54,548 nt of DNA. It comes from Ruminococcus sp. (lineage in GTDB: Bacteria > Bacillota > Clostridia > Oscillospirales > Ruminococcaceae). The notes under the pieces were generated by a model that saw only the letters and a program-made list of their open reading frames with translations, searched no databases and was not told the origin of the DNA. A program made the translations under genes and the position numbers. Location: contig JAAYBK010000357.1 in NCBI GenBank assembly GCA_012718885.1, forward strand, positions 1 to 54,548, written 5' to 3'. Of this stretch, positions 2,442 to 45,979 are shown one piece after another. Numbering within the stretch: position 1 is the stretch's first letter; each line of letters starts with the position of its first letter.

Positions 2442-3734
2442 TTATACACATACTGATGAAAGTACATCTGGTATGAGAACTTCTGTAGTAACTATCCCCT
2501 TGTCAAATTTGAGATCGAATTCTCCGTTAAGATTACGGACACATTCCTGAACGTTCCTTATACCGTAGCCGTGTCCCTCCTCAGCCTTGCCTGATATGAA
2601 CCTGTCACCCTCAGTAACGGGCGCAGTGGATGAAGAGTTCTTCACTATTATCAGAAGGTTGGTATTGTACGTCTTCACTATCGCTTCAACATTTTTCTTC
2701 TCGGAAGCTGAGGCTGCTTCATAGGCATTTTTCATAATGTTTGAAAATACCGTACATATATCGTATGAGGAGAGCGACAGTCCCTCCGGCATATGTCCTT
2801 TCCAGGTGAAATCCACCTTAGGATACTTGGCGGAAAGGTCATTTATAACGGCACTCACCAGATCGTTTCCGGTATCCACGCTTTTTTTCAGATCCTTTAT
2901 CCTGTCTGTCAGTTCTGAAAGATAGGAGCGGCATTCATCCGTTTTTCCCTCATCGAAAAGCGTGCTCATACAGTAGAGGTGGCTCTTCATATCGTGGCGG
3001 AAGGCCTTTGTCTCCTCCTCTTTCTTCAGCAGCATGAGGTAATACTCTTCAAGTATGGCAGTCATTCTGCTGGCTGCTTCATTCTCCTTTTTCAGGATCT
3101 CGTTCTGGGATTTGTTGGAGATGAGCAGGACGATTATGACAATAAAGATAAGCGAACATATACCCATTGCCAGCGCTATCATATCACGGTTTGCCATATC
3201 GGAATCCGAGAATGCAAAGAGCTGTATGGACGTAAGATAGAAGACTATAGCTGCGCCGCCAAGTGCGAACATAAGCGTATAGCTCTTTGAGAACTGATAT
3301 GTAATGCTCTTGCGCCGGCGGTACTTCGCCAGCATGAATATTCCCACAATTATGAACGTCGGCATATTCACGAGCTGATATGTAAGAGTTCCGCTGCGGA
3401 CATTTGCTGTGTTCATTCCGAAGCCGTACATGATAAAGCCGTTTATTATCATGTCAAGTATGCAGATGTAGATATATATAACAAAGACATATACGATCTG
3501 GAGCTTCTTTTTCAGGATGCACAATGCAGAAAGCATGAGCAGCACTGTAAGGAACAGGCTTCTCGGCATTGCAGTCCATTGAACTAAAACGCCGAACAGG
3601 ATAGTAGATACGACCGTAGTCCATATCATCCGCCTTTTCGACACATAGGCCAGGCCGAAAAACATGAATGCCACCGGCACAAGTTTCATATACTCCGTAA
3701 GATAGGAGAGCATCTCAAATAATAATTCCTTCAT
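2442..3734 (-). CDS. AgrC/VirS-like GHKL sensor histidine kinase with multi-TM N-terminus
   Basis: Hydrophobic N-terminal half; FRHDMKSH H-box; NIMKNAYEA N-box; GHGYG G-box. Confidence 0.92.
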   Translation of the reverse strand: MKELLFEMLSYLTEYMKLVPVAFMFFGLAYVSKRRMIWTTVVSTILFGVLVQWTAMPRSLFLTVLLMLSALCILKKKLQIVYVFVIYIYICILDMIINGFIMYGFGMNTANVRSGTLTYQLVNMPTFIIVGIFMLAKYRRRKSITYQFSKSYTLMFALGGAAIVFYLTSIQLFAFSDSDMANRDMIALAMGICSLIFIVIIVLLISNKSQNEILKKENEAASRMTAILEEYYLMLLKKEEETKAFRHDMKSHLYCMSTLFDEGKTDECRSYLSELTDRIKDLKKSVDTGNDLVSAVINDLSAKYPKVDFTWKGHMPEGLSLSSYDICTVFSNIMKNAYEAASASEKKNVEAIVKTYNTNLLIIVKNSSSTAPVTEGDRFISGKAEEGHGYGIRNVQECVRNLNGEFDLKFDKGIVTTEVLIPDVLSSVCV

Positions 3735-3743
3735 ACCGCTGCC

Positions 3744-4448
3744 TCACACATACTTCGCATTGCTGCGGATGAATTCAAAGTAACTTGTTTTAAGCTGGCT
3801 GTACTTTCTTCGTGAGACAGGTATCTCATCTTTAAGAAAGTCCATAGACACGCTGGTCTTATTCAGTGCACGTATGTGCCCGAAAGCAACAGCATATGAC
3901 TTATGCACCTGTATGAAGCTTCCGTCATCCAGGTCGGCAAGCAGGTTCTTGAGCTGCGCCTGAGCACAGATGACATCGTCTTTTGTATAGATATATGTAC
4001 CGTCGCCGAAGGCTTCGAGACTGATTATATCCTCGCAGTTGACTGTTACCATTTCTCCGGCACTCTTTACGACTATCTTTTTATCCTGTCTGAGTTCGGA
4101 GCAGGTCTCAGCAACAGCCTCCTCCAGCATTTTTCTGTCAACAGGCTTTTCAAGGAAACGGAACGCCCTTACCCTGAAGGCGGCCTGCATGAATTCGGTA
4201 TGGCTGGTAAGAAAGACTATATTGCTCTTGCAGCCCTTCTTTCTCAACTGCTCAGCGGTCTCCATTCCGTTGATACCGTTCATCTCGATATCAAGGAAGA
4301 TGAGATCGTATATCCCCTCTGAGCGGACGAGCTCCTCGCCTGAAGAATACTCCTTGACATCGAATTCTATGTCAAGGGTTCCGAGTGCACTTATCAGATC
4401 GCCCCTGACAAGCGCTTCATCATCACATATTGCAATTTTCAACACCAT
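3744..4448 (-). CDS. LytTR-family response regulator (AgrA-like)
   Basis: KIAICDDE, IFLDIEM, FLTSH, FLEKP receiver motifs; FIQVHKSY and IPVSRR LytTR motifs. Confidence 0.95.
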   Translation of the reverse strand: MVLKIAICDDEALVRGDLISALGTLDIEFDVKEYSSGEELVRSEGIYDLIFLDIEMNGINGMETAEQLRKKGCKSNIVFLTSHTEFMQAAFRVRAFRFLEKPVDRKMLEEAVAETCSELRQDKKIVVKSAGEMVTVNCEDIISLEAFGDGTYIYTKDDVICAQAQLKNLLADLDDGSFIQVHKSYAVAFGHIRALNKTSVSMDFLKDEIPVSRRKYSQLKTSYFEFIRSNAKYV

Positions 4449-4464
4449 TTAGATCACCTCCTTT

Positions 4465-4493
4465 ATTGTAACATATGTAATAGATTTTTTCAA
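4465..4493 (-). promoter_or_regulatory. Putative promoter of LytTR/HK operon 1
   Basis: TTGAAA-17-TACAAT with TG, immediately followed by SD AAAGGAGGTGA. Confidence 0.5.
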
Positions 4494-4541
4494 GAGTTTT
4501 TTAAAAAGTGTAAAACATTATACTTGAAAAAATTTATTCGT

Positions 4542-4572
4542 AAAAAAAATCGGACGGCATGAATCCGTCCGA
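4542..4572 (-). terminator. Intrinsic terminator closing the putative ncRNA
   Basis: tcggacgg/ccgtccga 8 bp stem followed by U8 on the minus strand. Confidence 0.75.
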
Positions 4573-5168
4573 CCACTACAGGGTGTGTTTTTTGTAACTT
4601 TCTTTTAATAATGGATTATCTTGCACAGAGTTTATCCTTATGCGCTTTATCAAGTTGTTGATATTAATCTGGGGATCATAAGTAGGTGATTAACAGAAGA
4701 TCTGGGGGTGAACAGATCTGAATGCTTGGACATTTACTGTATAGAGTGTGCATAACAGTATCAGGATCAGGAGTTATAAATCTCATGAAGCTGACCTTCT
4801 GAGCCGTGACTTATAATTCTTATGATAGAATATCGGTGGAGAGAACACCCGGATTGTATTACGATAATTGCTACGAGCCTTGCTACGTTTTATGGTGAGT
4901 TTGAGAAGTATTCAAAAATGACCGGAAGAATGCTTTGACATTCACAGCGGAGTGGGAAACATAGGGTGGAAGTTTCTCTGTTCAGGCCGTTTTTGAATAC
5001 CGTCCCATAGAACGATGTCTGCATGGTTTTTTTGGTGAATCTGATGGAGAGTCGTTGTTAGATCTTTAATACATCCGTAAGAGCTATAAATTGGCTGTTA
5101 ATATCAACAGCTTGATAAAACGCACATGATATTGAGTGTGACTCATTTTTGAGTTGTCCTCTGTGCTG
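4542..5168 (-). ncRNA. Putative ~625 nt structured regulatory RNA (RNAIII/VR-RNA-like context; family not recognised)
   Basis: No long ORF; bounded by a promoter (5174-5202) and a terminator; nested long-range helices 4623-4630/5159-5166, 4641-4667/5098-5124, 4851-4861/5067-5076, 4886-4895/5005-5014, 4908-4923/4985-5000. Confidence 0.65.
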
Positions 5169-5173
5169 ATTAT

Positions 5174-5241
5174 ATTCTATCACAGCTTCAGGCATATTTC
5201 AAGAGGTTTTCGGTCATCGGTATTTTTTGGACGGTGAACGG
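5174..5241 (-). promoter_or_regulatory. LytTR-type boxed promoter (leftward)
   Basis: Repeats CCGTTCACCG (5241-5232) and CCGATGACCG (5220-5211), 21 bp period; 8 bp; TTGAAA-17-TAGAAT with TG. Confidence 0.75.
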
Positions 5242-5273
5242 TAGAATATGGCGCAGATGCGTGATTTTAAGCA

Positions 5274-5341
5274 CCGTTCACCGCTGAAAAAACGCCGTTC
5301 ACCGGAGTGGGATTTACTTTTTCACATTTTTATTGTATTAT
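5274..5341 (+). promoter_or_regulatory. LytTR-type boxed promoter (rightward)
   Basis: CCGTTCACCG at 5274 and 5295 (21 bp period); 8 bp; TTTACT-17-TATTAT. Confidence 0.75.
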
Positions 5342-5386
5342 TAGTATAGCATTTTATTGCGAATAACTGTATGGAGGTGCTTCCAA

Positions 5387-5428
5387 ATGAAAAGTTTGGT
5401 AGATTGGTTCTGGTGGATCTTCGGATGA
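5387..5428 (+). CDS. 13-aa micropeptide MKSLVDWFWWIFG, putative signalling peptide
   Basis: GGAGGTG SD 7 nt before ATG; own boxed promoter and terminator; resembles MGGFWDFIFGR at 33.2/33.5 kb. Confidence 0.7.
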   Translation: MKSLVDWFWWIFG

Positions 5429-5472
5429 TATTCAATGGGGTGAGATCATTCGTATAATTCAAAAACGAATCA

Positions 5473-5515
5473 GAAAGAGCTCCTGCGGAAGCCTAATCCG
5501 CAGGAGCTCTTTTTC
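5473..5515. terminator. Bidirectional intrinsic terminator
   Basis: agagctcctgcgga/tccgcaggagctct stem with flanking A/T runs between convergent units. Confidence 0.8.
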
Positions 5516-5516
5516 T

Positions 5517-5987
5517 TTAATCTATCGGTATTACAGGAAGCTCTATCGCTCCGGACTCATCTCGTTCAAGAAGACCGTCCTCCGTGTTTGCTGTAGGCAA
5601 TTCCGGTGTCTCAGCCGGCGAATTATCGTCCGGTGTGAGCGCAGTTGCAGACTGACCTGCACTTGCTCCCTCAGTAACAGCCTGTACGGTGTCTGTTTTA
5701 CTTTCATTTGCAGGGATAGTTCCTTCATCCGTAGTCTGCTGCTTTGCAGCCTCTGTTGTTCCGGCAGCAGCTTCTGTAGAAGCCTGCTTTGCATCGGAGC
5801 CCGCTCCGCCTTTATCCTTTTCACCGGCAGCTCCGCCCTCGGATGCTGCTTCCTCAGCAGTTGTATCCTCGGTTGCGGCAGTTTCAGATGTTGTCTCGGA
5901 TGATGAAGATGATGAACTGTTTCCGCCGTTGCATGAAACGAGTGCGACTGACAGAAGCAGTGTTAAAACGATCAATGTTTTTTTCAT
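5517..5987 (-). CDS. Putative lipoprotein, Ser/Thr/Ala/Glu-rich low complexity, C-terminal IELPVIPID
   Basis: Start reassigned to MKKTLIVLTLLLSVALVSC (lipobox-like), GGAGG SD; the longer track ORF is antisense to the next gene. Confidence 0.75.
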   Translation of the reverse strand: MKKTLIVLTLLLSVALVSCNGGNSSSSSSSETTSETAATEDTTAEEAASEGGAAGEKDKGGAGSDAKQASTEAAAGTTEAAKQQTTDEGTIPANESKTDTVQAVTEGASAGQSATALTPDDNSPAETPELPTANTEDGLLERDESGAIELPVIPID

Positions 5988-32920: not shown

Positions 32921-32986
32921 ATTATAGCCCCTGCATCTGCTGTCAACAACAAAATGCGAGTGAGTAAAACTTTTTTTGGAGTAAAC
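32921..32986 (-). promoter_or_regulatory. LytTR-type boxed promoter of the biosynthetic operon
   Basis: GTTTACTC (32986-32979) plus degenerate ACTCACTC 21 bp downstream; 8 bp; TTGTTG-17-TATAAT. Confidence 0.7.
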
Positions 32987-33121
32987 GGTAATTTCATACT
33001 CTTCGCCATTGGCGATGATATCCGCTATATAGCGCAGATCCGGCAAGGATCAGCATTTCTGTTCCCGTTCGCACTCAGCTTGCCGTCATTGCCCCGGGCA
33101 CCTTTAAACTCCCATATGTCA

Positions 33122-33193: not shown

Positions 33194-33229
33194 TTATCTT
33201 CCGAAGATGAAATCCCAGAATCCGCCCAT
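33194..33229 (-). CDS. 11-aa micropeptide MGGFWDFIFGR, copy 1
   Basis: ATG GGC GGA TTC TGG GAT TTC ATC TTC GGA AGA TAA; SD GAAGGAAG; own promoter and terminator. Confidence 0.82.
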   Translation of the reverse strand: MGGFWDFIFGR

Positions 33230-33476: not shown

Positions 33477-33512
33477 TTATCTTCCAAAGATAAAATCCCA
33501 GAATCCGCCCAT
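33477..33512 (-). CDS. 11-aa micropeptide MGGFWDFIFGR, copy 2
   Basis: Same peptide as copy 1 with two synonymous TTC>TTT changes; SD AAAGGAG. Confidence 0.82.
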   Translation of the reverse strand: MGGFWDFIFGR

Positions 33513-33671: not shown

Positions 33672-34382
33672 ATGAAGATAGCAATTTGTGATGATAAGGC
33701 AACTATGCGCAGAGACCTGAAAAAACATCTTGAAGATTACGCAATAAAACGAAGGCTTGATCTTGTGTATGACGATTACAGCAATGGTTCAGACCTCCTT
33801 GCAAGCCCTATTGAATACGATGTAATATTTATGGACTATCAGATGGATGGCCTGGACGGCCTGGAAACCTCACGCAAGCTCAGGGACAAGAACATCAAAG
33901 CTGTTATAATATTCCTGACAAGCTTCCCGCATATAGTATTCGATGCATTTGAAGTGAACACATACCGCTTCCTGCTCAAGCCTATAGATGCAGAAAAGCT
34001 GGCCTCAGCTATGGATGACTACCTTAAAAGTCTCGATGACAGCCAATATATAGTAATAAAGACCGATGATGACAACCGGAGGATAAATATCGACGACATT
34101 ATATATGCCGAAGCCTCTGATAAATATTGCTATATCAGAACTGCTGACGAGAACATCCTATACAAGAATACCCTTTCAGAATTTGAAAAGCTTCTGCCGC
34201 AGGATTCCTTCTTCCGCAGCCACAGAACATATCTGGTAGGCTTCAAGCATATCGTTTCACATACTGCGGCAAATATACTCTTCGATAACAAGGAGCGTGC
34301 CCTTATCAGCAAGCTGAAGTATACTCCTTTCAAAAAGGCTTTTCTGGACTATGTAAAGCGCTACAACTTCTCAAAGGGCTGA
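33672..34382 (+). CDS. LytTR-family response regulator
   Basis: KIAICDD, IFMDYQM, FLLKP, FFRSHRTYLV. Confidence 0.95.
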   Translation: MKIAICDDKATMRRDLKKHLEDYAIKRRLDLVYDDYSNGSDLLASPIEYDVIFMDYQMDGLDGLETSRKLRDKNIKAVIIFLTSFPHIVFDAFEVNTYRFLLKPIDAEKLASAMDDYLKSLDDSQYIVIKTDDDNRRINIDDIIYAEASDKYCYIRTADENILYKNTLSEFEKLLPQDSFFRSHRTYLVGFKHIVSHTAANILFDNKERALISKLKYTPFKKAFLDYVKRYNFSKG

Positions 34383-34386
34383 GACC

Positions 34387-35676
34387 ATGGAATACATCAT
34401 ATACTTTATATCAAACTTCATACTATGCTCAGCAATATTCAGATCAATGTGCGTGTTCCTGAAGATGAAACCGGCTCACGGACAGATATTCAATAACGTA
34501 TGTCTGCTGATGTGCTCGCTCACATCCGTTTCAGTGCTTCTTCCGGCATCATCTATACCGCCGGTGCTAAGAGTATTCATAATACTGCTGGCCATATCAG
34601 GAAAAATGATATTCTTCTCGCTTATATTCGGCAAGCTCAACCTTAAAGTGATATATGTCTGCCTGCTGTCAATGGTAACGAGCTCAAATTACGACACTAT
34701 CCTGACTCTGCTGATCCAGGATAAGACCTGGCGCAGCATCGCAGCCTTTCTGCTGGAATCAGCCATACTGGGAGCTGTGCTCATGTACACCAAAAAGAAG
34801 GATCTACGGGATGTATTCTATGAATATATAAGAGTCCTGCCAAAGAAGCTCTATGCAGTCATACTCATATTCCTGTATGTTATGAATCTGGTGATATTCG
34901 CCTCCATAGACCCGAAATACGGAGATATCTCCAAGGTTATGCTGCTCCCGGCCTTTATATTCATGACGATCATCGTCTACTGGGTGCTCAAGGTCAGCAT
35001 ATCCGAGCACGAAAACAAGCAGGTATCATATATACTCTCTAAGCAGCTCGAAACACAGGTCAGCTACTATGAGAAAATAAACAGCATTTACAATGAATTC
35101 AGGAGCTTCCGCCACGACTTCAAAAACCACCTTCTCTGCCTCAGGAGCCTGCTTGCAGAAAACGAGGTGGAGAACGCTCTGGATTATATGAACGACATAG
35201 AAAATATGTCCTACACCGAAAAAAAGAACTTCGATACGGGAAATATCATCGCAGACGCACTTCTGAACGATAAGAACGAAAAAGCTGCCGCCTGCAATTC
35301 AAGGATTACATTCAGCGGATATGTCCCTACAAACGGAATAACCAACACAGACCTCTGCACCATTATGGCAAACGCCCTGGATAACGCTATCGAGGCTTGC
35401 GCCAAGGATACCGGAGACGAGTTAAAGGAGATAAAAGTAGAATCCGACTTCAAACAGGGCTATTTCTTCTTCAAGGCCACAAATCCGGTATTTGAAAAGG
35501 TGGACATCAAAAACGGCAACGAGCTGAAGACCTCAAAGGAGGATAAGTCCTGCCATGGATTCGGCGTGGCTAACATTGTTAAGACCGCTAAAAAATACGG
35601 TGGCTCTGCCCATGCCTCAATATCCGATAACAAATTCATCCTCGAAACAGAGCTCCTGCTCAACAGAGAGATATAA
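34387..35676 (+). CDS. AgrC/VirS-like GHKL sensor histidine kinase
   Basis: Multi-TM N-terminus; FRHDFKNH; NALDNAIEA; HGFG. Confidence 0.93.
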   Translation: MEYIIYFISNFILCSAIFRSMCVFLKMKPAHGQIFNNVCLLMCSLTSVSVLLPASSIPPVLRVFIILLAISGKMIFFSLIFGKLNLKVIYVCLLSMVTSSNYDTILTLLIQDKTWRSIAAFLLESAILGAVLMYTKKKDLRDVFYEYIRVLPKKLYAVILIFLYVMNLVIFASIDPKYGDISKVMLLPAFIFMTIIVYWVLKVSISEHENKQVSYILSKQLETQVSYYEKINSIYNEFRSFRHDFKNHLLCLRSLLAENEVENALDYMNDIENMSYTEKKNFDTGNIIADALLNDKNEKAAACNSRITFSGYVPTNGITNTDLCTIMANALDNAIEACAKDTGDELKEIKVESDFKQGYFFFKATNPVFEKVDIKNGNELKTSKEDKSCHGFGVANIVKTAKKYGGSAHASISDNKFILETELLLNREI

Positions 35677-35755: not shown

Positions 35756-36202
35756 CTACAGCTTGTTGTAATTCGTTCCTATATAAATATCTACGATGCA
35801 GTCCGCCGGGTTTTCCGCCAGCCTTACGATATTATAATAGGGTCTTGTTATCATTTCATAGGATCTCTTCCGGATATAATCCTCAAGCTTTTTTTCAGTA
35901 GTATCGATATCAGCAAGGCTGCCCTCATGTCTTATGGTGACAGCGTTTATCAGCCGGAAAAGCTCTTTATGGCCGTATTCACTGTGATCTGTGATATCGC
36001 CGATGACCGGAACAAGTATCTCGATATCCCTCTTCTCATCTGTCGGATACGTAAAGCAGATCTTCTTTGTAGGTTCAACCCCTAATGCGGATACATTCCG
36101 GCAGATGTGATCCGCCAGCTTCGGAATATCCTCCTTAGGAAGATTCGTCCTGTATGAGATCATGTTTTCCATAAATAGGGAACGGTTTTCAAGTATCTGC
36201 AA
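35756..36202 (-). CDS. GyrI-like/DUF5085-like small-molecule-binding protein
   Basis: AVTIRHEGSLADIDTTEKKLEDYI pattern; TTG start after AAGGTGG. Confidence 0.6.
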   Translation of the reverse strand: MQILENRSLFMENMISYRTNLPKEDIPKLADHICRNVSALGVEPTKKICFTYPTDEKRDIEILVPVIGDITDHSEYGHKELFRLINAVTIRHEGSLADIDTTEKKLEDYIRKRSYEMITRPYYNIVRLAENPADCIVDIYIGTNYNKL

Positions 36203-36314: not shown

Positions 36315-36380
36315 ATTTTACATATATATAGCCCCTCCGTCACCTTTTTTTCCGTGAATGGCCCCTTATTAAGAGTAAAC
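36315..36380 (-). promoter_or_regulatory. Fourth LytTR-type boxed promoter (weaker match)
   Basis: GTTTACTC (36380-36373) plus ATTCACGG 21 bp downstream; 8 bp; GTGACG-17-TAAAAT. Confidence 0.55.
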
Positions 36381-36688: not shown

Positions 36689-39600
36689 TTAATTAGAAAA
36701 CACGTTATCCTTATAGGCATTGCCGTCCAGCCATTTTTTATTAGTCATTGTCTGGGTAAAAGGTGCCTGAGCGATATCGTTCTCCGGAACTGTTACGTTC
36801 CTTGTTCTCTCTGCCGGAGTATATCTCCACGACCAGTTATTCTGTGTCACTTCGTAATCGCCTATCGGAAGTCCGCTTATGATGCGGCTGTCATTGCCGT
36901 TTATACATATCTTTAGCTCTATCCAGCTATTATGAGCATCCTTACCCTTGATGATGTACTCAAAGGACTGTGAAGGATCTGTACAGCCGCTGCTGCTTAC
37001 TTCAAGTGCTCCGCGTTTATATTCATAAAGCGCATAGTAGGACTTATCTACATTAGAGCCAAGCGGCTTAAGCTCGTTCTGCTCATCACCGGCAAGAACA
37101 TTGAAGCCTTCCATATCCTGAACTCTCTGTGTGCAGGCCTCATCGGTATACCAGCCAACGAACCTGTAAAGTGAGTCTTCTTCCTCAGCAATTACGTAAC
37201 TGCCGGGGCGGTCTCCCACCGTTACTATGACCTGATTGTAGGATAGCAGAGGATACTCATCCGGATCTGCTTCCGCAAGACCTGTTCCGTCCGGGATCAT
37301 AGCGTGATAGCTGAACATTATCTCTTCGACCTTGGTGTAAACGAAGCGTAGCTTATTTTTAGAGAATGTATTATCGTCATCCGTTACAACGAGGCTCTTT
37401 GTTTTTCCTCCTGTGATCCTGTATCCATCGACCTCCGGAGCGGTTGCTGAGAAAGTCTCATTATACTTGATCTCATCGGTTATCTTATAGAGCGTGCGGT
37501 AATAGGTATTGCCGTTATACTCAAATGCGTCCTCGCCCAGAAGCTCCGGATCATTTGCGAGCATACGTGTGTTCCACTCGGATACCGACTTATCGTCCGT
37601 ACCAGTATAGTTATATATCAGCTTTACCGGATACTTCTTCTTGAGGTAGTATATATGGATCTCCTTACTTACAACGTCCTCCTCCAGCAGCATTTCCAAG
37701 GTTGCCGGTCCGGGTTCAAGATCCTGTACGGGGCGTATCACTTTCTGCTCGACATCGTCTTCTTCAATATAAACGACCTCGTTATAGCCTTCGACCTCAT
37801 ATCCGCTGTAGCTGTTCAGAGGGATGTTCTTTACAGTGCCTCTCTGTCCAACAGCATCGATGAAGTTCGCCTCAGTGAACTTGTAGGTCTCGCCGTCCAC
37901 TTCCTTCTGGATCTTGCCGTTATCGTTCTCAAGCATATACTTTACATGGTAAGGCATATTTACGAGATCCTCGGTATAGTAGAAGGTTATGACGTTGGTT
38001 GCGGCCTCCTCCTCAGGATCGTCTGATACCATAAGGGTAAGGGATATGTAGTAGGAATCCGGAACATAATTTGCGATCGGTATATACTTTTCAGATACTA
38101 CTGAATAGATATTGTCTCCGACGTACTTTTCCTCGTGGAGTACCTCCTTTGTATACTTATCCAGATACCTTACAGTATACGGCACTTTGTCACGGTAAGT
38201 ATAATTGAAGGTCTTGACATTCTGCGTATAGTCGCTCTTCATAAGTATAGATGTACTTCTTCTGTCAGGGAAATAATGTGCCTGATAACCCTCGTTCAGT
38301 TCATCCTCTACCTTGGCCTTGAAGGTCCTTGTAAGTCCTACGAAGGAATATCCCACTGTATCCTCTGCGACCTTGGTCTCTGTTCCGGTTACATAATAAT
38401 GTACAACAAAGCTTGCCGGGACAGTGGATGACCACTTCATAAAGAGATCCATATCACCGGATACTGTCATAGTAGCCGGATCAAAGGCGTGAAGATTATG
38501 CTCCTCGTCATAGTAATACCAGCCGGCCTTTGCCGCCGGATAGCTGCCTGTAGAATTGGTTATGATCGGCGCACTAAGGTTGTTTTCGGCCTCTGTCGGA
38601 TCGATAAGTGTGCCATAATCATCTGATTCGGTATACTTATATGGATTTCCGCTTTCATAATCTGTCTCATCGTTATAGAAATTGATAGTGAATGACTTTG
38701 GTTTCCAACGAGCATATACCGTAACATCATTGTCCGGCATCGTACTGCTCCAGTCAAACAGCTCGTCGTATGTATCCGATGTATACCAGCCGGCAAACTC
38801 ATAGGATCCGGGCTTGAGGTCCTGCGGATACGGCGGCTGACCTGCCTCAAACTCGTCCATTGGCTGGCCGTACATTATCGATGAGGTATCAGTGCCGGTG
38901 GAATAATACTGATTGTAGTTATAGTAGAGCAGGCTGTGGCGGTTACGGATATAGTGGAAGTCTGTTGTCCATATGCCGTCAGGGTATTCATCATCATATT
39001 CCAGATGATGACCGTTTGCTTCACCGTGAGAAACACTATGTCCGCCTGCATCCTCAGGAATAACAGTGAAGCCCTTGTATACGAATGGATCGATTCTTGT
39101 ATTGCTGTTATGAGCCGCAACCAGTTCGATAACTCGGTCAAGATCATATCCGTCACCGTCAAGCTTCTCATAGTAGATATTGTAGCGATGCGGTCCAACG
39201 TAATCATCATGCTTGCCCCACCATGCCCAAAGAAGCTGAGCGACGCTTTCGCTGTTATTAGGATCATAGACATATGACGGGTCAACTATCATCTCATCTG
39301 ACATATAGGGATAAGGTCCAACTATATTTGCATGAGTAGTATTTCTCTCTCTGTATTTGGTTCCTGTCTGTGTACTCCATGAGCCGAAGGAATATTCTCC
39401 GGAATCACCTATCACAGCCGCCGGCCATATATCCTCTATATTTGCGTTATACTCGGCGACCAGCTCCACGTAATCGTAGATCTCATGGTTATAGGTATAT
39501 GAACCTGTTGTTATACCGGCAGATGTATCCACCTCCGGCAGATTGGGCAGTACATAAGTCATTTTGGCAGAAGTCGGGAAATTACCGTTTCCGGTACCGC

Positions 39601-41197
39601 TTGCTGCCTTTATATTGCTCTGAATCGTAGTAACAGTTGCGTCAGCATAATCGTAAAGCCGCCACCTGTTAGCAGTTTCAAGGCCGTTGCCGCTGGTAGG
39701 ATAGACCTGCACTCTTTCTCCGGCATTCCTCTTATCATTAAGGTAATATGTCGTATTATTGTATACCGTCGAAATGAGGAAGTAATCCTCAGCATTGTCA
39801 TAATGTGTGATATCAAATTTCAACGGCGTATCCGACATTACAGCCGGCTTTCCGACATCCGTGCCGTTGAAATTGACTGACAGATACTTTCCGTCGCTGA
39901 ACCGGATATAATAACCGCCGCCTTCTACCGGAACAAGTGTCCAGAGATAATCAAAATTGGTGTTATTATAATCTACCTGTGCTCGCATACCGTCTGCAGC
40001 TTCCAGATTAGAAAGCGCCTTAGAACGGTCTTTATTGGTATTTACCAGCACATACTGGTGGTTGTCCTGAACTGCCGTTACGGGATCGCCGCCTACTGCT
40101 GAGGTACTCTGCGTGTGCTTCAGGTACACAAACCTGAGCTTATACTTATTTCTCGAATAATACAGCCTGACAATGGTAGAGCCGTCGCCGTTTACCGTTA
40201 CTTGTGCGGGATTATCAGCCTTGGTGGCTGCCTCATCAAAGGTAAAATAGCCAAAATCATTAAGACTGTTGTTATCCTTGTTTGCAGCGATGATATCATC
40301 GATAGACAGTTCTGCATCCGGATCGGCATAAAGTGTTCTTGTACCCCAGAAGCTGTAGGTAGTATCGCCGCTGCCATCGCTCAGATCGGCGTTCTTATAA
40401 ATTATCGTATAAGGGACCTGTGCTTTTTTCTCCCAGAGAGCTGTATATGTCATGTTCTCAGTTACGATATCCGACAGCTCCGGCGACCAGCCTACGAAAT
40501 TGTAGCCGGCTCTGATAGGAGTTATAACGTTCAGCGAGGATTCGTAAGGCGCATATACAGGGTCTACACCGTAGCCGCCGTTTCCAAGGTCGAAATTTAT
40601 CAGGTAATAGTTTCTGTCGTAGTAGACCTCAAACTCTGTTGAACCATCGGCAGCAATGACCTCGGGCACATGATACATCAGTGTAAAGCCTTCAAAAGCA
40701 TTCTCAAGTGTACGGCCGCCGATTTCTTCGACAGGGAAATCTGCCTGGAATTCCTCCGGCTCAGTACCGGTTATACCGCTTCCGTTTATGTACTCTGCCA
40801 GCTCGTATCCTTCAAGGTCTGCCTTCTGTTTATACAATCTTATAATGTACGGTACCTCCGAGGGGAAATAGAATACATCCACCTCTGAATCAGCCTCAAA
40901 GTTAACGGTAACGCTCTCAAGGCTGTTCTTGTTGATATCGCATGGGCTGAAGCCCGGTACCATAGGGCATCGCTCAGTCATAGCTGCTGAGCCCTTAGGC
41001 ATATGAGCAACGAAGGGCGGGAAGGGCTCGGAGCCCTTATGGTCCGCTGCTGTCTCGTCATAATAGTAGTAGTTGATAGTAGCTGTTATCATTCCGGACG
41101 AGGTATCAGCATAAACTGATCCTGACATTGCGAATGCCAGCGCCATAAGCAATACGCCCAATACTACCAATACAGATTTTCTGAGGTTTCTTGTCAT
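36689..41197 (-). CDS. Large secreted adhesin-like protein with InlB B-repeat (Listeria-Bacteroides) domains
   Basis: Signal peptide; GYNFVGW...YTALW and YEFAGWY...VYARW repeats; possible beta-trefoil insert. Confidence 0.82.
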   Translation of the reverse strand: MTRNLRKSVLVVLGVLLMALAFAMSGSVYADTSSGMITATINYYYYDETAADHKGSEPFPPFVAHMPKGSAAMTERCPMVPGFSPCDINKNSLESVTVNFEADSEVDVFYFPSEVPYIIRLYKQKADLEGYELAEYINGSGITGTEPEEFQADFPVEEIGGRTLENAFEGFTLMYHVPEVIAADGSTEFEVYYDRNYYLINFDLGNGGYGVDPVYAPYESSLNVITPIRAGYNFVGWSPELSDIVTENMTYTALWEKKAQVPYTIIYKNADLSDGSGDTTYSFWGTRTLYADPDAELSIDDIIAANKDNNSLNDFGYFTFDEAATKADNPAQVTVNGDGSTIVRLYYSRNKYKLRFVYLKHTQSTSAVGGDPVTAVQDNHQYVLVNTNKDRSKALSNLEAADGMRAQVDYNNTNFDYLWTLVPVEGGGYYIRFSDGKYLSVNFNGTDVGKPAVMSDTPLKFDITHYDNAEDYFLISTVYNNTTYYLNDKRNAGERVQVYPTSGNGLETANRWRLYDYADATVTTIQSNIKAASGTGNGNFPTSAKMTYVLPNLPEVDTSAGITTGSYTYNHEIYDYVELVAEYNANIEDIWPAAVIGDSGEYSFGSWSTQTGTKYRERNTTHANIVGPYPYMSDEMIVDPSYVYDPNNSESVAQLLWAWWGKHDDYVGPHRYNIYYEKLDGDGYDLDRVIELVAAHNSNTRIDPFVYKGFTVIPEDAGGHSVSHGEANGHHLEYDDEYPDGIWTTDFHYIRNRHSLLYYNYNQYYSTGTDTSSIMYGQPMDEFEAGQPPYPQDLKPGSYEFAGWYTSDTYDELFDWSSTMPDNDVTVYARWKPKSFTINFYNDETDYESGNPYKYTESDDYGTLIDPTEAENNLSAPIITNSTGSYPAAKAGWYYYDEEHNLHAFDPATMTVSGDMDLFMKWSSTVPASFVVHYYVTGTETKVAEDTVGYSFVGLTRTFKAKVEDELNEGYQAHYFPDRRSTSILMKSDYTQNVKTFNYTYRDKVPYTVRYLDKYTKEVLHEEKYVGDNIYSVVSEKYIPIANYVPDSYYISLTLMVSDDPEEEAATNVITFYYTEDLVNMPYHVKYMLENDNGKIQKEVDGETYKFTEANFIDAVGQRGTVKNIPLNSYSGYEVEGYNEVVYIEEDDVEQKVIRPVQDLEPGPATLEMLLEEDVVSKEIHIYYLKKKYPVKLIYNYTGTDDKSVSEWNTRMLANDPELLGEDAFEYNGNTYYRTLYKITDEIKYNETFSATAPEVDGYRITGGKTKSLVVTDDDNTFSKNKLRFVYTKVEEIMFSYHAMIPDGTGLAEADPDEYPLLSYNQVIVTVGDRPGSYVIAEEEDSLYRFVGWYTDEACTQRVQDMEGFNVLAGDEQNELKPLGSNVDKSYYALYEYKRGALEVSSSGCTDPSQSFEYIIKGKDAHNSWIELKICINGNDSRIISGLPIGDYEVTQNNWSWRYTPAERTRNVTVPENDIAQAPFTQTMTNKKWLDGNAYKDNVFSN

Positions 41198-41799
41198 GGC
41201 TGTCCCCCCTCTGTCTGCTGATCGTCAGGCTGAGTGCCCCAGGCATCCATAACGGCAGTCTTTGAACCGTCATCGGTGCTGCCAAGAGCCTGTATTGTCT
41301 CAGTAATGACCTCAACGTGCATGGTACAGCCCTCCGGAGCGGCTTTGATCTGGCTCAGCTTCTGAGTCTGGCCGATCAGAGGAGCGGTAGTTCCTCCGCT
41401 CTGAACAGCTTCGGTATAATAAAACCAGCCATCATCACCCTTTGTCCAGTCATCTGTATTGTACTCAAGAGTATAATCCGTGCCCTCGACAGGCTGCTGG
41501 CCGTAGATATATCCTCCGGAAGTATGCCATGTAACGATAAGATCAGCTCTCACATATACCGGATAGCCCTCATCGCCCACAGTTACTGCAACATTGTTCT
41601 TGAAGAACATACCACCCTCCGAATCAACGTTGTCGCTGACCGAAGGAGCATCGTACTCGCCGGCTTTAAGGGTATTCTCCTGAGCAGGAGAGCCTTTTAT
41701 ATACTTAGCAATTATATTTGCGGAGACTGCTGTAAGAAGCAGAGCGGCAACTATTGCAAACACGATGACCGTTCTCTTTTTTGAACGCTCAGCTCCCAT
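41194..41799 (-). CDS. SipW-type signal peptide exported protein (minor fibre subunit candidate)
   Basis: IIAKYI, VYVRA, DGWFYY, ETIQA motifs. Confidence 0.7.
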   Translation of the reverse strand: MGAERSKKRTVIVFAIVAALLLTAVSANIIAKYIKGSPAQENTLKAGEYDAPSVSDNVDSEGGMFFKNNVAVTVGDEGYPVYVRADLIVTWHTSGGYIYGQQPVEGTDYTLEYNTDDWTKGDDGWFYYTEAVQSGGTTAPLIGQTQKLSQIKAAPEGCTMHVEVITETIQALGSTDDGSKTAVMDAWGTQPDDQQTEGGQP

Positions 41800-41830
41800 A
41801 TCAGCACCTCCTTTTAAGATATCGCCTCTG

Positions 41831-42451
41831 TCAGTCTGCCTGTACCAGATAGGCGTAGAAAACTATTGAAAATTCATTTGAATTGTCTGTAGGCTGGCTC
41901 TTGTCTTTAAGGCTGTCCTTTACGATAAGCCTGTTACCTGCAAGAATATCGGTTATCTCCGCTCCGGTATGAGCCGGGAGCGTGTCCTTGTATTTGTATA
42001 CAGTTCCGCCGTACCTCGGGGCAAAGTCCTCTGTTTCAAGCCAACTGCTGCCGTTTATCGTATATATTACATCTCTCGGCTTATCCACATTCACAGCTTC
42101 AAGATACACCTCACAGGCAGTCTCGCTGCTGTCGGTGACTATAATGAAGGGATCCTTTGGTATCATGGTTCCGGGGAGTATCACAGGATAATCGTTCCCC
42201 TCCACCACAGAATCCGTATCCAGCGTATACACGCCGTTTGTCAGAACAGCCTCATGCTCGTGGACACTTATCTGAGCAAATGCTGCAACGGATGTCACAT
42301 CATTTTTTTCGTCCAGATTTTTGTATTTCGCAAAAAGTCCGCAGACCCACCAGACAGAGAGCAGTGTTAGGACAACAAGTATCCCTGCGGCTTTGAACAT
42401 ATTCTGATGAGTAAAGAAACCGTCTTTTTTAATATCAGAAAACCTGTTCAC
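41831..42451 (-). CDS. SipW-type signal peptide exported protein
   Basis: GLFAKYK, ILPGTMIPKDP, C-terminal YAYLVQAD; GTG start after AAGGAGG. Confidence 0.72.
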   Translation of the reverse strand: MNRFSDIKKDGFFTHQNMFKAAGILVVLTLLSVWWVCGLFAKYKNLDEKNDVTSVAAFAQISVHEHEAVLTNGVYTLDTDSVVEGNDYPVILPGTMIPKDPFIIVTDSSETACEVYLEAVNVDKPRDVIYTINGSSWLETEDFAPRYGGTVYKYKDTLPAHTGAEITDILAGNRLIVKDSLKDKSQPTDNSNEFSIVFYAYLVQAD

Positions 42452-42471
42452 AGCACACCCTCCTTTTCCTG

Positions 42472-43014
42472 TCATTCATCCCTGAGTCTGCGGATCTCTT
42501 CTTTCAGTCTTTCCTGCTCGGACAAGACCTTTTTCCTTTCCATATAGTAAGGCAGTTCAAACATTGCTATCGCCGCTATCAGCAGCAATATGAAGCAGGC
42601 CGGAGTCCTTATGAATCTCACTATCCTTCCGGCACCTGATATATGCTTTGTCATCCTGCCTTTTACTGCATCCTTTTTTATGGGCTCATCAGCAGTATTA
42701 TTTGCATCGCCCTTGGTGATATAGCCTTCCTTTGTTACATCGATGATACGGTGTATCACAAGGGAGCGGCCGTCCTGATAAACGACAACATCTCCCACCT
42801 TATAGTCATCCTGTTCCTTTACTATGACCAGGTCGTCCACGCTGAGCACCGGCTCCATACTGCCTGAGAGCACTACCGAGGCTCCCACTCCAAAGGGCAT
42901 CGGCATCTCATTTCCCACCAGTGTCTTTGCGTTCCAGGTATACAATTTCAGGCCTATTATGATACTCAGCAGCACCAGTGCCGCTATCCTTACAACTGTA
43001 CCGGCTTTTTTCAC
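42472..43014 (-). CDS. sipW: SipW-type (ER/archaeal-type) signal peptidase I
   Basis: VLSGSMEP, VIHRI, TKGDANN (Ser-His). Confidence 0.9.
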   Translation of the reverse strand: MKKAGTVVRIAALVLLSIIIGLKLYTWNAKTLVGNEMPMPFGVGASVVLSGSMEPVLSVDDLVIVKEQDDYKVGDVVVYQDGRSLVIHRIIDVTKEGYITKGDANNTADEPIKKDAVKGRMTKHISGAGRIVRFIRTPACFILLLIAAIAMFELPYYMERKKVLSEQERLKEEIRRLRDE

Positions 43015-43931
43015 TGCTCTTCTTCCTCGTCCTTCCTGTTTCTCGGTCTGACAGCAAGCATAAGTATCAGCGCACCGGTCAGAACTGCCGGAACAGCGCC
43101 CATAGCCACGCCTGTCTTAGGAGAAGCCTCCGGATCATATGGATTTGCCAGCCCGTTCTCCTCCTTCGGAGCAGTCTCGTCATAGGCTGCAAAAGTATTG
43201 ATCTTTATAGTGAGGGCGATGTCACCATTCACCGCCATATTTCCAAGCATAGTATCGTATGTGTCATTATCCCACTCATAAGGCCATTCCCAGTCAAGGG
43301 TATAGACTGCGAACCTGCCTGCGCTGAGCTTTGAATGTTCTCTGACAGTATTCAGCTCGTCGGTATCCACCATTTCGCTGCTGCTTCCGACTATATATCT
43401 GTCTGTATGGTCGTGGACTCTTGCCTTTACGGGCAGCTTCAGATCAGTTCCTGTGATCCAGGACTCCATAGTCATATCATAATCCAGCGGCACATCTCCC
43501 GTATTCTCAAGAGTAAACACATACTCGTTTGAAGTTCCGGGAGCAATGAGCTTATCGCCGTTTTCGGAATTGACGGTTATGCCCTTTTCGCTGTCATAGC
43601 TCAGGTGGAATATCTCCAGCTTCGTATCCGACACCCATACTGTATCCTTATCATAGGTGCGGAAGCCGGGAGAAGCAAGCTGCACTATCTGGGGAGCATC
43701 GTCACCGTATCCGGCAGCAGTCTGCTCTGCGCCGTATATCTCCTGTCTTGTGGCGGCAGTCACCGTAGTAGCTCCTCTTGAAACTGTGAGCGGTATCACA
43801 TTCTTGAAGCTTTCCGGCGAATAGGCTGTAAGTCTTGAAAAGAGGACAGCCAGCGAAGCCAGATCGCATATGAACACAAGAGCGATAAGAATACTGAAAA
43901 CCGCCGTATTTTTTTGTCTTCCGGATCTCAA
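43011..43931 (-). CDS. Sortase-anchored protein sharing a motif with the TasA-like subunit
   Basis: KLIAPGT and LDWEW shared with 44144-44995; SPKTG + TM + charged tail. Confidence 0.75.
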   Translation of the reverse strand: MRSGRQKNTAVFSILIALVFICDLASLAVLFSRLTAYSPESFKNVIPLTVSRGATTVTAATRQEIYGAEQTAAGYGDDAPQIVQLASPGFRTYDKDTVWVSDTKLEIFHLSYDSEKGITVNSENGDKLIAPGTSNEYVFTLENTGDVPLDYDMTMESWITGTDLKLPVKARVHDHTDRYIVGSSSEMVDTDELNTVREHSKLSAGRFAVYTLDWEWPYEWDNDTYDTMLGNMAVNGDIALTIKINTFAAYDETAPKEENGLANPYDPEASPKTGVAMGAVPAVLTGALILMLAVRPRNRKDEEEEQ

Positions 43932-43995
43932 AGCTGTTCCCTCCCTTTTTTACAGTCTCTGTGCCGGATGTATAGCTAAAATGTAAAACGTTTAT

Positions 43996-44100
43996 ATTCG
44001 GCATTTGCGGCAGCCCGACATGACAAAATAGCCGGCCCGGACTGCCGCAAATACCGAAGCCCTGTGCGGCCGCTGCCACAACCGGCCGCACAGCTTCGGT
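43996..44100 (-). other. Tandem strong hairpins downstream of the major subunit gene (mRNA stabiliser or attenuator)
   Basis: ttcggcatttgcggcag/ctgccgcaaataccgaa and ctgtgcggcc/ggccgcacag. Confidence 0.6.
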
Positions 44101-44143
44101 TCAGTTATTCAATTACATATCGCATTGAAATTATTACCTGCTA

Positions 44144-44995
44144 TCAGTCTACCTGTGTTACAGTAATAGCGATCTTAACATCTGTGTTAAGATTGTAATC
44201 TGTACCAGCTGTAAGCGAAGTAGCAGGTGTGAGTGTTGTTCCGGCAGCAAGATCACCGAGGAGGGTATCCTGCTTGTCGTATGTACCTGCACCGTTAGCG
44301 TCGAAATCCCACTCCCATGTCAGCTTCAGTGTGCCTATACCGTCTGCACCTGCAAGATTTGTGTTAGCATCAACTGTTGCAGCAGAGAGTCCTTCCAGAG
44401 CTGTTTCGAGCTCGGAGAGCTTTACGCCATTGACCAGAGTAGTTTCTGTGCCGCCCTTGGTCTGGGTGAGGGTATACTTGATCGGGTAGTAATCAGCAGC
44501 GTTATCGAATGTATCTGTCTGATTTCCTGTAGTCATATCCGGCAGGCCTGTCTTTGCCTTAAGGAAGATATCCTTAGGAGCAGCATCGCTGGCATCTGTA
44601 ACAACAACCCCGATCCTTACAGCAACTTCAGGAGTTCCTGTAACTGTAAATGTAAGGCCATCATCATTCTTTGTACCCGGAGCAACGACCTTATCTGTGC
44701 CGTCAACACCGTCGTGATCTGTAGTTTCACCTGTTACAGCGCTGGATACAACGCTGAGTGTAGCGGCAGCAGTTGAATCTCCGCTTGCACCAGGTGTATT
44801 GGTTGTTGTCTTATATGTATCAGAGAACAGCTTACCATCTGCTGTAACAACAACTCCGAATTTAGCAACACGGGCTGTATCAGAACCACTGTCACTTGTA
44901 ACATACTTTGCATATGTTCCACTGATAATGCTTGTCGTGAGGAGGGTAGCAACTGTAAGGCCGCCCGCAGCTCTCATTGTCTTGTTCTTTTTCAT
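44144..44995 (-). CDS. TasA/camelysin-like SipW-processed major subunit
   Basis: SGTYAKY SipW-class cleavage motif, VVAPGT, C-terminal TVTQVD. Confidence 0.78.
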   Translation of the reverse strand: MKKNKTMRAAGGLTVATLLTTSIISGTYAKYVTSDSGSDTARVAKFGVVVTADGKLFSDTYKTTTNTPGASGDSTAAATLSVVSSAVTGETTDHDGVDGTDKVVAPGTKNDDGLTFTVTGTPEVAVRIGVVVTDASDAAPKDIFLKAKTGLPDMTTGNQTDTFDNAADYYPIKYTLTQTKGGTETTLVNGVKLSELETALEGLSAATVDANTNLAGADGIGTLKLTWEWDFDANGAGTYDKQDTLLGDLAAGTTLTPATSLTAGTDYNLNTDVKIAITVTQVD

Positions 44996-45132
44996 ACTAA
45001 TGCCCCTTTCGTAAATTATTACCTTTTGGCTGGTTTATTCCTCCCTGAAAGAAATTGATCTTATGGGAGATACATAATGTATATCCATCCCTGATGTGGC
45101 ATTCAAGGGAAGAATAACGTGACTTGCGAGGA

Positions 45133-45882
45133 TCATTCCTTATCCTCGTCTTTGTTCCGGGACTGTGTATCAGTCTCAGTCGTTGTTGTATCAGCAGCAG
45201 TTCCGGGATCATTTTCCCCGGCAGGAGCTGTATCCTCCTGAGAGGAGATCTCCTTTTCCTTCTTTTCAGCTTTAAGAGCCTCCAGCTCTGCAAGCAGAGC
45301 AACTGTATCCTGCTGATTCTGTTTATCGTAGCTGCGCCGGCGGATAACATCGTAGCCTATCAGCATGAGCAGCGGCAGCAGCACACAGATCACAAGACCT
45401 GCTGTAGTCTGCATGAACATAGCTGCGTGGCCGGCTTTCGGGATACGTTTCTTGTATCTGCCTACCAGCTTGTCTTCCGGGACTGATTTTTTATCCTCTG
45501 TATTATTGGCATCACCCTTTGTCCGGAAGGAGAGAATGCCGTTGTTTTCTTCGATACTTGTGACACGGTGAGTAAGGATACTCTTTCCGTTTCCGTCAGG
45601 GTCATAGAAAGCAATGATATCACCTACTGAAACATCCTTGCCGTCGATTTGCTTAACGATAATAAGGTCGCCGCTCTTGATAACCGGATCCATGGACTCA
45701 GTAAGCACTATCAGCGGACAAAAACCGCCGAGTTTAGGTACCTCGTCCTTATTGGTGTAGCTTTTGATTATAAGAGTGACGTTTATTACAAGTATTGGTA
45801 TTAATATTACGCAAAGTATTGCTCCGATTATCGTCAGAACCTTATGCCGGACAGAAGATATCTCTTCCTTCTTCTGAGCCAT
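45133..45882 (-). CDS. sipW: Second SipW-type signal peptidase I
   Basis: VLTESMDP, LTHRV, TKGDANN. Confidence 0.9.
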   Translation of the reverse strand: MAQKKEEISSVRHKVLTIIGAILCVILIPILVINVTLIIKSYTNKDEVPKLGGFCPLIVLTESMDPVIKSGDLIIVKQIDGKDVSVGDIIAFYDPDGNGKSILTHRVTSIEENNGILSFRTKGDANNTEDKKSVPEDKLVGRYKKRIPKAGHAAMFMQTTAGLVICVLLPLLMLIGYDVIRRRSYDKQNQQDTVALLAELEALKAEKKEKEISSQEDTAPAGENDPGTAADTTTTETDTQSRNKDEDKE

Positions 45883-45979
45883 TGTGGATCTCACGCTCCT
45901 TCATATGATACAACGCAGAACTTGATTCCTGTTATATCTTGCGAAAAATCTAATAAAACCGCTAATATATATTTTCTAT

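Follow-up and report, generated by a model that had tools for sequence, protein, structure and literature searches.

An agr-like locus without AgrB in Ruminococcus, with a candidate leaderless peptide signal and a conserved structured RNA

Related systems and the anatomy of the locus

The agr system of Staphylococcus aureus combines an AgrC-like kinase with a LytTR regulator and two divergent promoters that each contain direct repeats (PMC4227749), and its large RNA, RNAIII, carries C-rich loops of a type that binds Shine-Dalgarno (SD) sequences (PMC2790875). Another related system is RgaS-RgaR/SpoZ of C. difficile, grouped with VirSR/VR-RNA of C. perfringens; it has VirR-like repeats and activates a peptide gene together with an RNA of 528 nt, the target of which is a small ORF next to it (PMC10602386). 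AgrB1 makes the peptide of that system, AgrD1, which does not signal via RgaS, and the genes are unlinked (PMC10602386). This precedent indicates that such systems drive RNAs of ~500 nt and that the controlled peptide need not signal back. Leaderless communication peptides (LCPs) are ultra-short, hydrophobic, aliphatic or aromatic peptides without a secretion signal, often encoded beside biosynthetic clusters (PMC10518010; its main text has 0 occurrences of "histidine kinase"). They are sensed in the cytosol by RRNPP receptors of the RopB clan. In the ComCDE, PlnABCD and Blp systems, a linear peptide with a double-glycine leader and a C39-peptidase exporter is combined with an AgrC/ComD-type kinase, a LytTR regulator and box promoters for antimicrobial clusters. 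The genus Ruminococcus also has a canonical agrBAC-D locus, the regulator and kinase of which are related to those described here.

The stretch of DNA analysed (the window) comprises 54,548 nucleotides of a Ruminococcus sp. contig. On its minus strand lie a REC-LytTR response regulator (3744..4448; identified by Pfam and placed in clade A by the tree), of which ComE is a full-length solved relative, and an AgrC-like histidine kinase of 430 aa (2442..3734) with seven N-terminal helices and a GHKL domain (Pfam HATPase_c_5). The kinase scored far below the Staphylococcus equivalog cut-off; its structure model had a pLDDT of 77, and the top two fold matches were the cytoplasmic kinase of S. aureus AgrC. 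As modelled, the protein is an AgrC-type multi-helix membrane kinase. The two-component operon has a predicted sigma-A promoter (4465..4493, minus strand) without boxes, both hexamers of which are kept in G089 and in the sister species G032.

The original prediction described four LytTR-type boxes in two opposed pairs, each with a 21-bp period and 8 bp to a -35/17/-10 promoter, and a rightward unit holding a 13-codon ORF with a strong SD and a terminator; every one of these elements was found in place. The rightward unit (5274..5341, plus strand) faces the peptide gene and contains two identical boxes (5274-5283 and 5295-5304), 8 bp, a -35 hexamer (5313-5318), 17 bp and a -10 hexamer (5336-5341). 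The leftward unit (5174..5241, minus strand) faces a non-coding RNA and contains boxes at 5241-5232 and 5220-5211, the proximal one with 2 mismatches, followed by 8 bp, a -35 hexamer (5202-5197), 17 bp and an extended -10 ending at 5174. With its near-consensus promoter and weak proximal box, it could fire without the regulator. The leftward box spacing is kept in 3/3 species, and the spacer between the two pairs drops to 33% identity. Counted as 9-mers, the window boxes are arranged as 9-12-9 bp, 10 bp from the -35, and match the LytTR layout tabulated in PMC6193735 (9 bp-12 bp-9 bp, ~10 bp before the -35). Since the geometry equals the published layout and the box ending follows the regulator clade, the LytTR regulator very probably binds the box pairs, as judged from sequence.

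Among all period-21 pairs of the 3.06-Mb assembly, the two at this locus scored best, with 0 and 2 mismatches (the runners-up had 3 and 4, and control periods of 15-29 gave 0-6 pairs at ≤4 mismatches), a ranking that is partly circular because the box was defined here. The same box and promoter geometry recurred in 8/12 clade-A and 22/25 clade-B relatives and at 0/19 canonical agr loci. An independent promoter-pattern scan returned 75 stretches, 13 of which adjoin such a regulator-kinase pair; 12 of these 13 lead to a short aromatic ORF. Most of the remaining matches come from unrelated phyla and appear to be chance matches. Among named records, these promoters occurred mainly in Ruminococcus and Oscillospiraceae, with one in Lachnospiraceae. 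Clade-A-type box promoters without a sensor pair nearby were also observed at L234, L248, L214, L219, L215, L252, L270 and L278, where they face stretches without an obvious SD-ORF; at L234 and L248, a terminator-like hairpin follows after 300-390 nt.

The locus differs from the known systems in several respects. An agr P2/P3-like layout had been proposed and did not hold: the kinase operon lies beyond a terminator (4574-4548) and is preceded by a promoter of its own (4493-4465), neither of the two box promoters points directly at it, and it is therefore not placed behind a regulator-box promoter as at P2, although read-through is conceivable. Unlike S. aureus agr, the locus has 17-bp promoter spacers, and the 13-aa peptide stands alone in its unit, without AgrB or AgrD. 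No AgrB was detected at the window locus or above the cut-off in the genome that contains it (G000, 86% complete), where a weak match was a 173-aa ORF that looks unrelated by inspection; G032 had none and G089 one borderline match, and AgrB of the genus used as a query matched nothing in G000, G089 or G032. An AgrD precursor with a leader, ring-forming residue and charged tail was absent, the 13-aa peptide itself being too short for a profile scan. Neither a double-glycine leader nor a linked C39-peptidase exporter was present at the two window loci (one C39 match in G000 lies on another contig), and no RopB-clan RRNPP receptor stands beside the peptide, the neighbours of which are REC-LytTR and GHKL proteins. 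In contrast to the window, the canonical locus of the genus encodes AgrB and a TIGR04223 AgrD and lacks such boxes. In summary, the circuit would work like agr/RNAIII and the peptide resembles LCPs, but the locus belongs to none of agr (no AgrB or AgrD), the LCPs (no RopB) or ComCDE (no leader).

The reading that we favour, in which our confidence is evenly balanced, is an agr-like circuit without AgrB that uses a leaderless linear signal and an RNAIII-like RNA output. The 13-residue peptide would leave the cell unprocessed or barely trimmed and activate the neighbouring seven-helix kinase, and the phosphorylated LytTR regulator would bind both box pairs and switch on both promoters. Positive feedback would run via the peptide only. 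The ~630-nt RNA would carry the output by pairing with mRNAs and, on the ribosome-binding site of the peptide, would provide a delayed negative feedback that acts as a brake. At other loci, the output would be a biosynthetic cluster or a GyrI-like gene.

Short aromatic peptides beside AgrB-less sensor pairs

The micro-ORF MKSLVDWFWWIFG (5387..5428, plus strand; SD at 5373-5379) encodes 13 residues without Cys and with an aromatic core at the end, and its orthologues are MKGLVDWFWWIFG and MNGPKAVIDWLWWLFH. Its mRNA leader (5346..5380, plus strand), which includes the SD, has 31/35 columns conserved relative to G032 (89%, compared with 54% for the peptide ORF) and is predicted to fold into a 5' hairpin over its own SD. 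The unit is closed by an intrinsic terminator with an 18-pair stem (5472..5514, plus strand).

Close regulators were carried by 57/161 genomes of the genus. We fetched 80 regions, covering 80/82 non-self regulator matches plus one from another search, and assigned clades from a quick tree, leaving one broken row (L076) out of all counts. In the tree, the regulators fell into the AgrB-less groups A, A2, B and C and a canonical agr clade, with 9 outside these. A short Trp/Phe SD-ORF, defined by a fixed rule that was written post hoc after the peptides had been seen and that 82/692 small SD-ORFs in G000 satisfy, was present at 41/56 AgrB-less loci (A 9/13, A2 4/7, B 21/26, C 7/10), 2/19 canonical agr loci and 0/9 others. 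Both window loci are among the 41/56, as are a duplicated locus, a peptide entered twice and a small number of spurious matches, and the rule misses real-looking peptides at L037, L067, L074, L078 and L084. An AgrB-family neighbour was found at 16/19 canonical loci (a true AgrD was confirmed at one, by TIGR04223) and at 0/54 AgrB-less relatives, and the peptide thus occupies the place of AgrB/AgrD.

The window peptide had been described as a second family member; it is one of dozens. Across 36 hand-picked loci, the peptides are 7-32 aa long (median 13) with a variable N-terminus, and W, L, F and I make up 51% of their residues. Examples include MNGPKAVIDWLWWLFH, MQKMILIDWLWWLFQ, MGDFLDWLFGGRK (from R. 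flavefaciens ND2009, L220), MWDWLFG and MFWDIFKKIFG. Strain ND2009 is in culture, as is another carrier, Ruminococcus sp. XPD3002 (L264). The 7-residue members MWDWLFG and MWEWWFK have no leader. Because the N-terminus varies and such 7-mers exist, the active core would need no leader. As in the LCPs, the ORFs are ultra-short and hydrophobic and lack a secretion signal; unlike the LCPs, family members contain internal D/E/N and often have basic tails, and beside them stand a membrane kinase and a LytTR regulator instead of a cytosolic receptor. No family of dedicated exporters or peptidases was found repeatedly at the loci, and ABC-type genes are present in every clade. Genes of PKS, RiPP, lantibiotic and bacteriocin-export type are usual quorum outputs, and PKS, radical-SAM RiPP, LanM and bacteriocin-export genes were found among the sampled neighbours. 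Repeated Cys/Gly-rich or acidic precursor-like ORFs were also observed at L045 (6415-6717, minus strand), L056 (near 6605, minus strand) and L044 (near 12728, minus strand), adjoining C39 exporters or radical-SAM genes and in some cases behind box promoters.

From its position and family, the peptide is somewhat more probably the ligand of the kinase than not. Co-folding of a clade-A sensor with its 32-residue peptide (L037), the window 13-mer being under the size advised for the tool, scored 0.00, a value that carries no weight for or against binding. The first alternative is that the peptide stays in the membrane of the producer and tunes its own kinase, as inhibitor or activator, so that no signal passes between cells. 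MgrB is a small membrane peptide that tunes PhoQ from within in this manner, and the W/L/F/I-rich composition, the lack of a signal sequence or recurrent exporter, and transcription from regulator-type boxes would all be expected of such a modulator. However, MWDWLFG and MWEWWFK are too short for a membrane span, the peptides and AgrB/AgrD are mutually exclusive, and locus 2 of the window carries two identical peptide copies, which together make this explanation unlikely.

It is less likely still that the peptide is itself the output, an amphipathic surfactant or antimicrobial, and that the kinase senses something else, as in RgaS-RgaR. Several members, such as MWNDIMRAIGNLFK and MFWDIFKKIFG, resemble short amphipathic helices by inspection, and antimicrobial clusters adjoin the loci. 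Delta-toxin and the PSMs are amphipathic products of this type, but the family members are much shorter than PSMs. Uncoupling of peptide and sensor has a precedent in C. difficile, where the product of a peptide gene switched on by a similar LytTR system does not feed back into that system (PMC10602386), but here there is usually one tiny gene directly at the sensor pair, whatever the output cluster, and its sequence differs by clade.

For many AgrC/AgrA-like pairs of gut Clostridia, no signal is annotated. If the ligands are encoded by micro-ORFs too short for gene callers, as in the favoured circuit, an inexpensive synthetic peptide would suffice to test each pair, and the neighbouring PKS, RiPP and bacteriocin clusters of fibre-degrading bacteria would become testable as well. 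The circuit, if true, would also join two separate modes of signalling, leaderless peptides and membrane kinases. In a review of rumen signalling, the evidence for peptides is described as limited (PMC10838665), and the accessible text of a small-protein survey contains AgrB-linked peptides only (10.1101/494179). No description of the peptide family or of the RNA was found in the main texts of the openly accessible literature, and supplementary small-ORF or RNA catalogues may contain them.

A conserved RNA of ~630 nt

The leftward promoter faces a non-coding stretch of ~630 nt that was absent from the original prediction. Placed by its promoter and terminator, this structured RNA would span 4542..5168 on the minus strand. 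The intrinsic terminator (4548..4574, minus strand) has a stem that is invariant in three species, and a 27-bp long-range stem is predicted between 5098..5124 (5' arm, minus strand) and 4641..4667 (3' arm, minus strand), which are 93% complementary. DNA identity with G032 was 89.6% for the RNA, compared with 81.6% for the LytTR gene, 73.6% for the kinase gene and 89.9% for panC; the corresponding values for G089 were 96.2% (RNA), 94.2% (LytTR) and 86.5% (kinase). The RNA had a fold z of -10.5 (-9.3 without the terminator, -4.4 for the opposite strand), and 17/327 paired columns were variable compared with 42/206 unpaired ones. In the predicted structure, C accounts for 33% of the unpaired bases and G for 4%, and seven loops with a C content of 28-62% are invariant, in contrast to most A-rich loops (four sequences from three species). 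Conserved, unpaired C-rich loops like those of RNAIII are therefore present in the model. No compensatory pairs were found in the RNA alignment (0/179) because the sequences are too close.

Indels relative to G032 are 1-2 nt long and non-triplet. A coding reading was tried and rejected: among 10 ORF starts of at least 12 codons, five carry a frameshift in G032, another is scrambled, in two all changes are non-synonymous and the remaining two are invariant, and conservation of the coding type was not seen. Like the window RNA's lack of a conserved coding frame, the lack of any Rfam match near a gathering score sets it apart from RNAIII. Full-length homologues occur in 3/161 genomes of the genus. 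No further full-length match was found in 400 family genomes, the fetched loci (by profile), phages or plasmids, and a metagenome scan added two close copies and nothing else. A retron or MITE origin found no support: the RNA is single-copy, the sole RT trace was a sub-threshold fragment of 88 aa on a different contig, and phages and plasmids gave no match.

Two other non-coding stretches were noted beside peptide genes. At L038 (5000-5463, minus strand), the unit of the G087 peptide MLTKLNWLWRLFF continues for ~460 non-coding nt to a terminator that precedes the regulator; this tail is folded (z -4) and showed no detectable homology to the RNA (score 32, shuffles 27 +/- 3). At the canonical agr loci L060 (5057-6230), L079 (9546-10688), L092 (9323-10507) and 12 more, ~700 nt of partly conserved non-coding DNA lie behind agrD, with conserved blocks, a terminator, a G-poor composition like that of the window RNA and a fold z of -1 to -10. 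These tails, which had no Rfam match at the two loci scanned and no detectable homology to the window RNA, are a possible RNAIII analogue of the canonical agr locus of the genus.

Parts of 3700-5600 were contained in 22 RNA runs, chosen by the presence of this stretch; seven from seven studies and one run of unknown kind (X23) were examined, with contigs giving rough depth and neither strand nor ends. In 6/7 RNA runs, a single contig within ~4657-5116 was deeper than any other listed piece. Its depth was 441 in X1 and 451 in X2, compared with 2-8 for neighbouring genes, and the listed pieces of these two runs, which contain the strain, differed from the window by 0-1 letters. Depths in four other runs were 64, 23, 15 and 11. 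Run X4 showed no excess (3 compared with 2.7), and depth in X23 was flat. The ~630-nt RNA is thus present in RNA libraries and apparently abundant in rumen and digester metatranscriptomes. Among the listed pieces, the peptide ORF was covered in X23 alone, and its missing cover elsewhere carries no evidential weight. RNA contigs end near 4660 and 5100, but no cleavage at the long stem is claimed, since a contig of X23 ends there as well.

An invariant hairpin-loop segment of the RNA (4736..4751, minus strand) is predicted to pair with the ribosome-binding site of the peptide mRNA. The predicted duplex joins 4751-4736 to 5366-5380 over 15 bp, covers the SD, and is kept in 3/3 species at 15-17 bp and -18 to -20 kcal/mol; in G032 and G089, the sole leader change preserves the pairing as a G-U and lengthens the duplex to 17 bp. 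Its statistics are modest: for the whole RNA it ranked 59-65 of 2370 start regions and 6-10 of 437 with a strong SD, and its rank of 7/2370 was obtained for an RNA domain picked afterwards (~64 when the full leader was used). Pairing with the SD of the LytTR gene was unremarkable (ranks 532-1898), and no outstanding mRNA target emerged among the 2370 start regions. The conservation of the leader may also have another cause because its hairpin covers its own SD. The RNA is somewhat more probably a base-pairing regulator than not, and repression of the peptide by it is a tentative proposal.

The RNA could alternatively be abundant and largely constitutive, act through proteins or as a sponge, and be merely inserted here, in which case the leftward boxes would matter little. 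The near-consensus extended -10 promoter with its degenerate proximal box, the occurrence in three species only and the lack of an outstanding mRNA target are in keeping with this. It is nevertheless very unlikely, since the leftward box spacing is kept in three species across a diverged inter-pair spacer, the G-poor RNA with its C-rich invariant loops fits SD pairing, and other clade-A box promoters likewise face non-coding stretches. A type I toxin-antitoxin pair, in which a hydrophobic toxin with a masked SD is held by a divergent antisense RNA, would account for the SD inside a 5' hairpin, the 15-17 bp predicted duplex and the divergent layout, but is highly improbable given that most family members have no such RNA nearby, that both genes lie behind boxes of one regulator and that 630 nt of conserved structure far exceed the need of one duplex. 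As the RNAIII-like output of the favoured circuit, this large uncatalogued transcript would, if the reading is true, add another agr-type system that acts through a long RNA.

A second module in the window

Locus 2 comprises a LytTR regulator of clade B (33672-34382) and an AgrC-like kinase (34387-35676), which together span 33672..35676 on the plus strand, and two copies of the peptide MGGFWDFIFGR on the minus strand (copy a, 33477..33512; copy b, 33194..33229), each with its own box promoter and terminator. The prediction of two paralogous peptide/kinase/box modules in one genome was borne out by their different LytTR clades, box endings and predicted DNA-reading loops and by sensor domains that are only 12% identical. 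The boxes of the two loci had been called different sequences; their last two bases do differ, but the boxes are related and share the same core. With a box consensus drawn from the window's two loci, one ending was found at 8/12 clade-A, another at 22/25 clade-B and a third at 3/10 clade-C loci, and none at the 19 canonical loci. The clade-diagnostic residues of the LytTR domain are 149-150, 180 and 211-213, which we take, from the AgrA structure, to be DNA-reading positions. The published account in PMC4227749 bears out those AgrA positions only in part. The case for box discrimination is drawn from the clade-specific endings and the clade-diagnostic residues, and insulation of the two channels is plausible on this sequence evidence.

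Co-variation of peptide and kinase across genomes had been proposed as a check and gave no specific signal. The correlation between peptide and sensor (rho 0.31) was no stronger than that between peptide and kinase core (0.31) and is therefore explained by ancestry; within clade B, 113/2000 permutations reached the observed peptide-sensor value. The most far-reaching form of the reading is widespread quorum sensing in Ruminococcus and its kin, with leaderless, linear, Trp-rich peptides of 7-17 residues read directly by AgrC-type membrane kinases, several insulated channels per genome and, in this lineage, an abundant ~630-nt RNA as output, an independent RNAIII invention that also silences the peptide at its ribosome-binding site. 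Taken as a whole, it is a rather doubtful proposition.

Elsewhere in G000, a short stand-alone LytTR protein is encoded at C449 2856-3143, and a LytTR regulator-kinase pair at C451 1-1950 is cut by the contig start, where a third peptide module is possible. Within the window, a further clade-B box pair (32958-32988) faces a 22-kb type II PKS-like cluster (11105-33009, minus strand) with ketosynthases, an ACP, BtrH-like proteins, four FAD oxidoreductases, an aminotransferase and an ABC transporter. A GyrI-like gene of ~150 aa (35756-36202, minus strand) has its own box promoter, with the pair near 36343-36373; this family occurs at 19/25 clade-B loci, and its product could bind or quench the signal. 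Further along, 36689-45894 (minus strand) encodes a 1502-aa repeat surface protein, two signal-peptidase-like proteins and several unassigned ORFs, and is possibly a surface-structure cluster.
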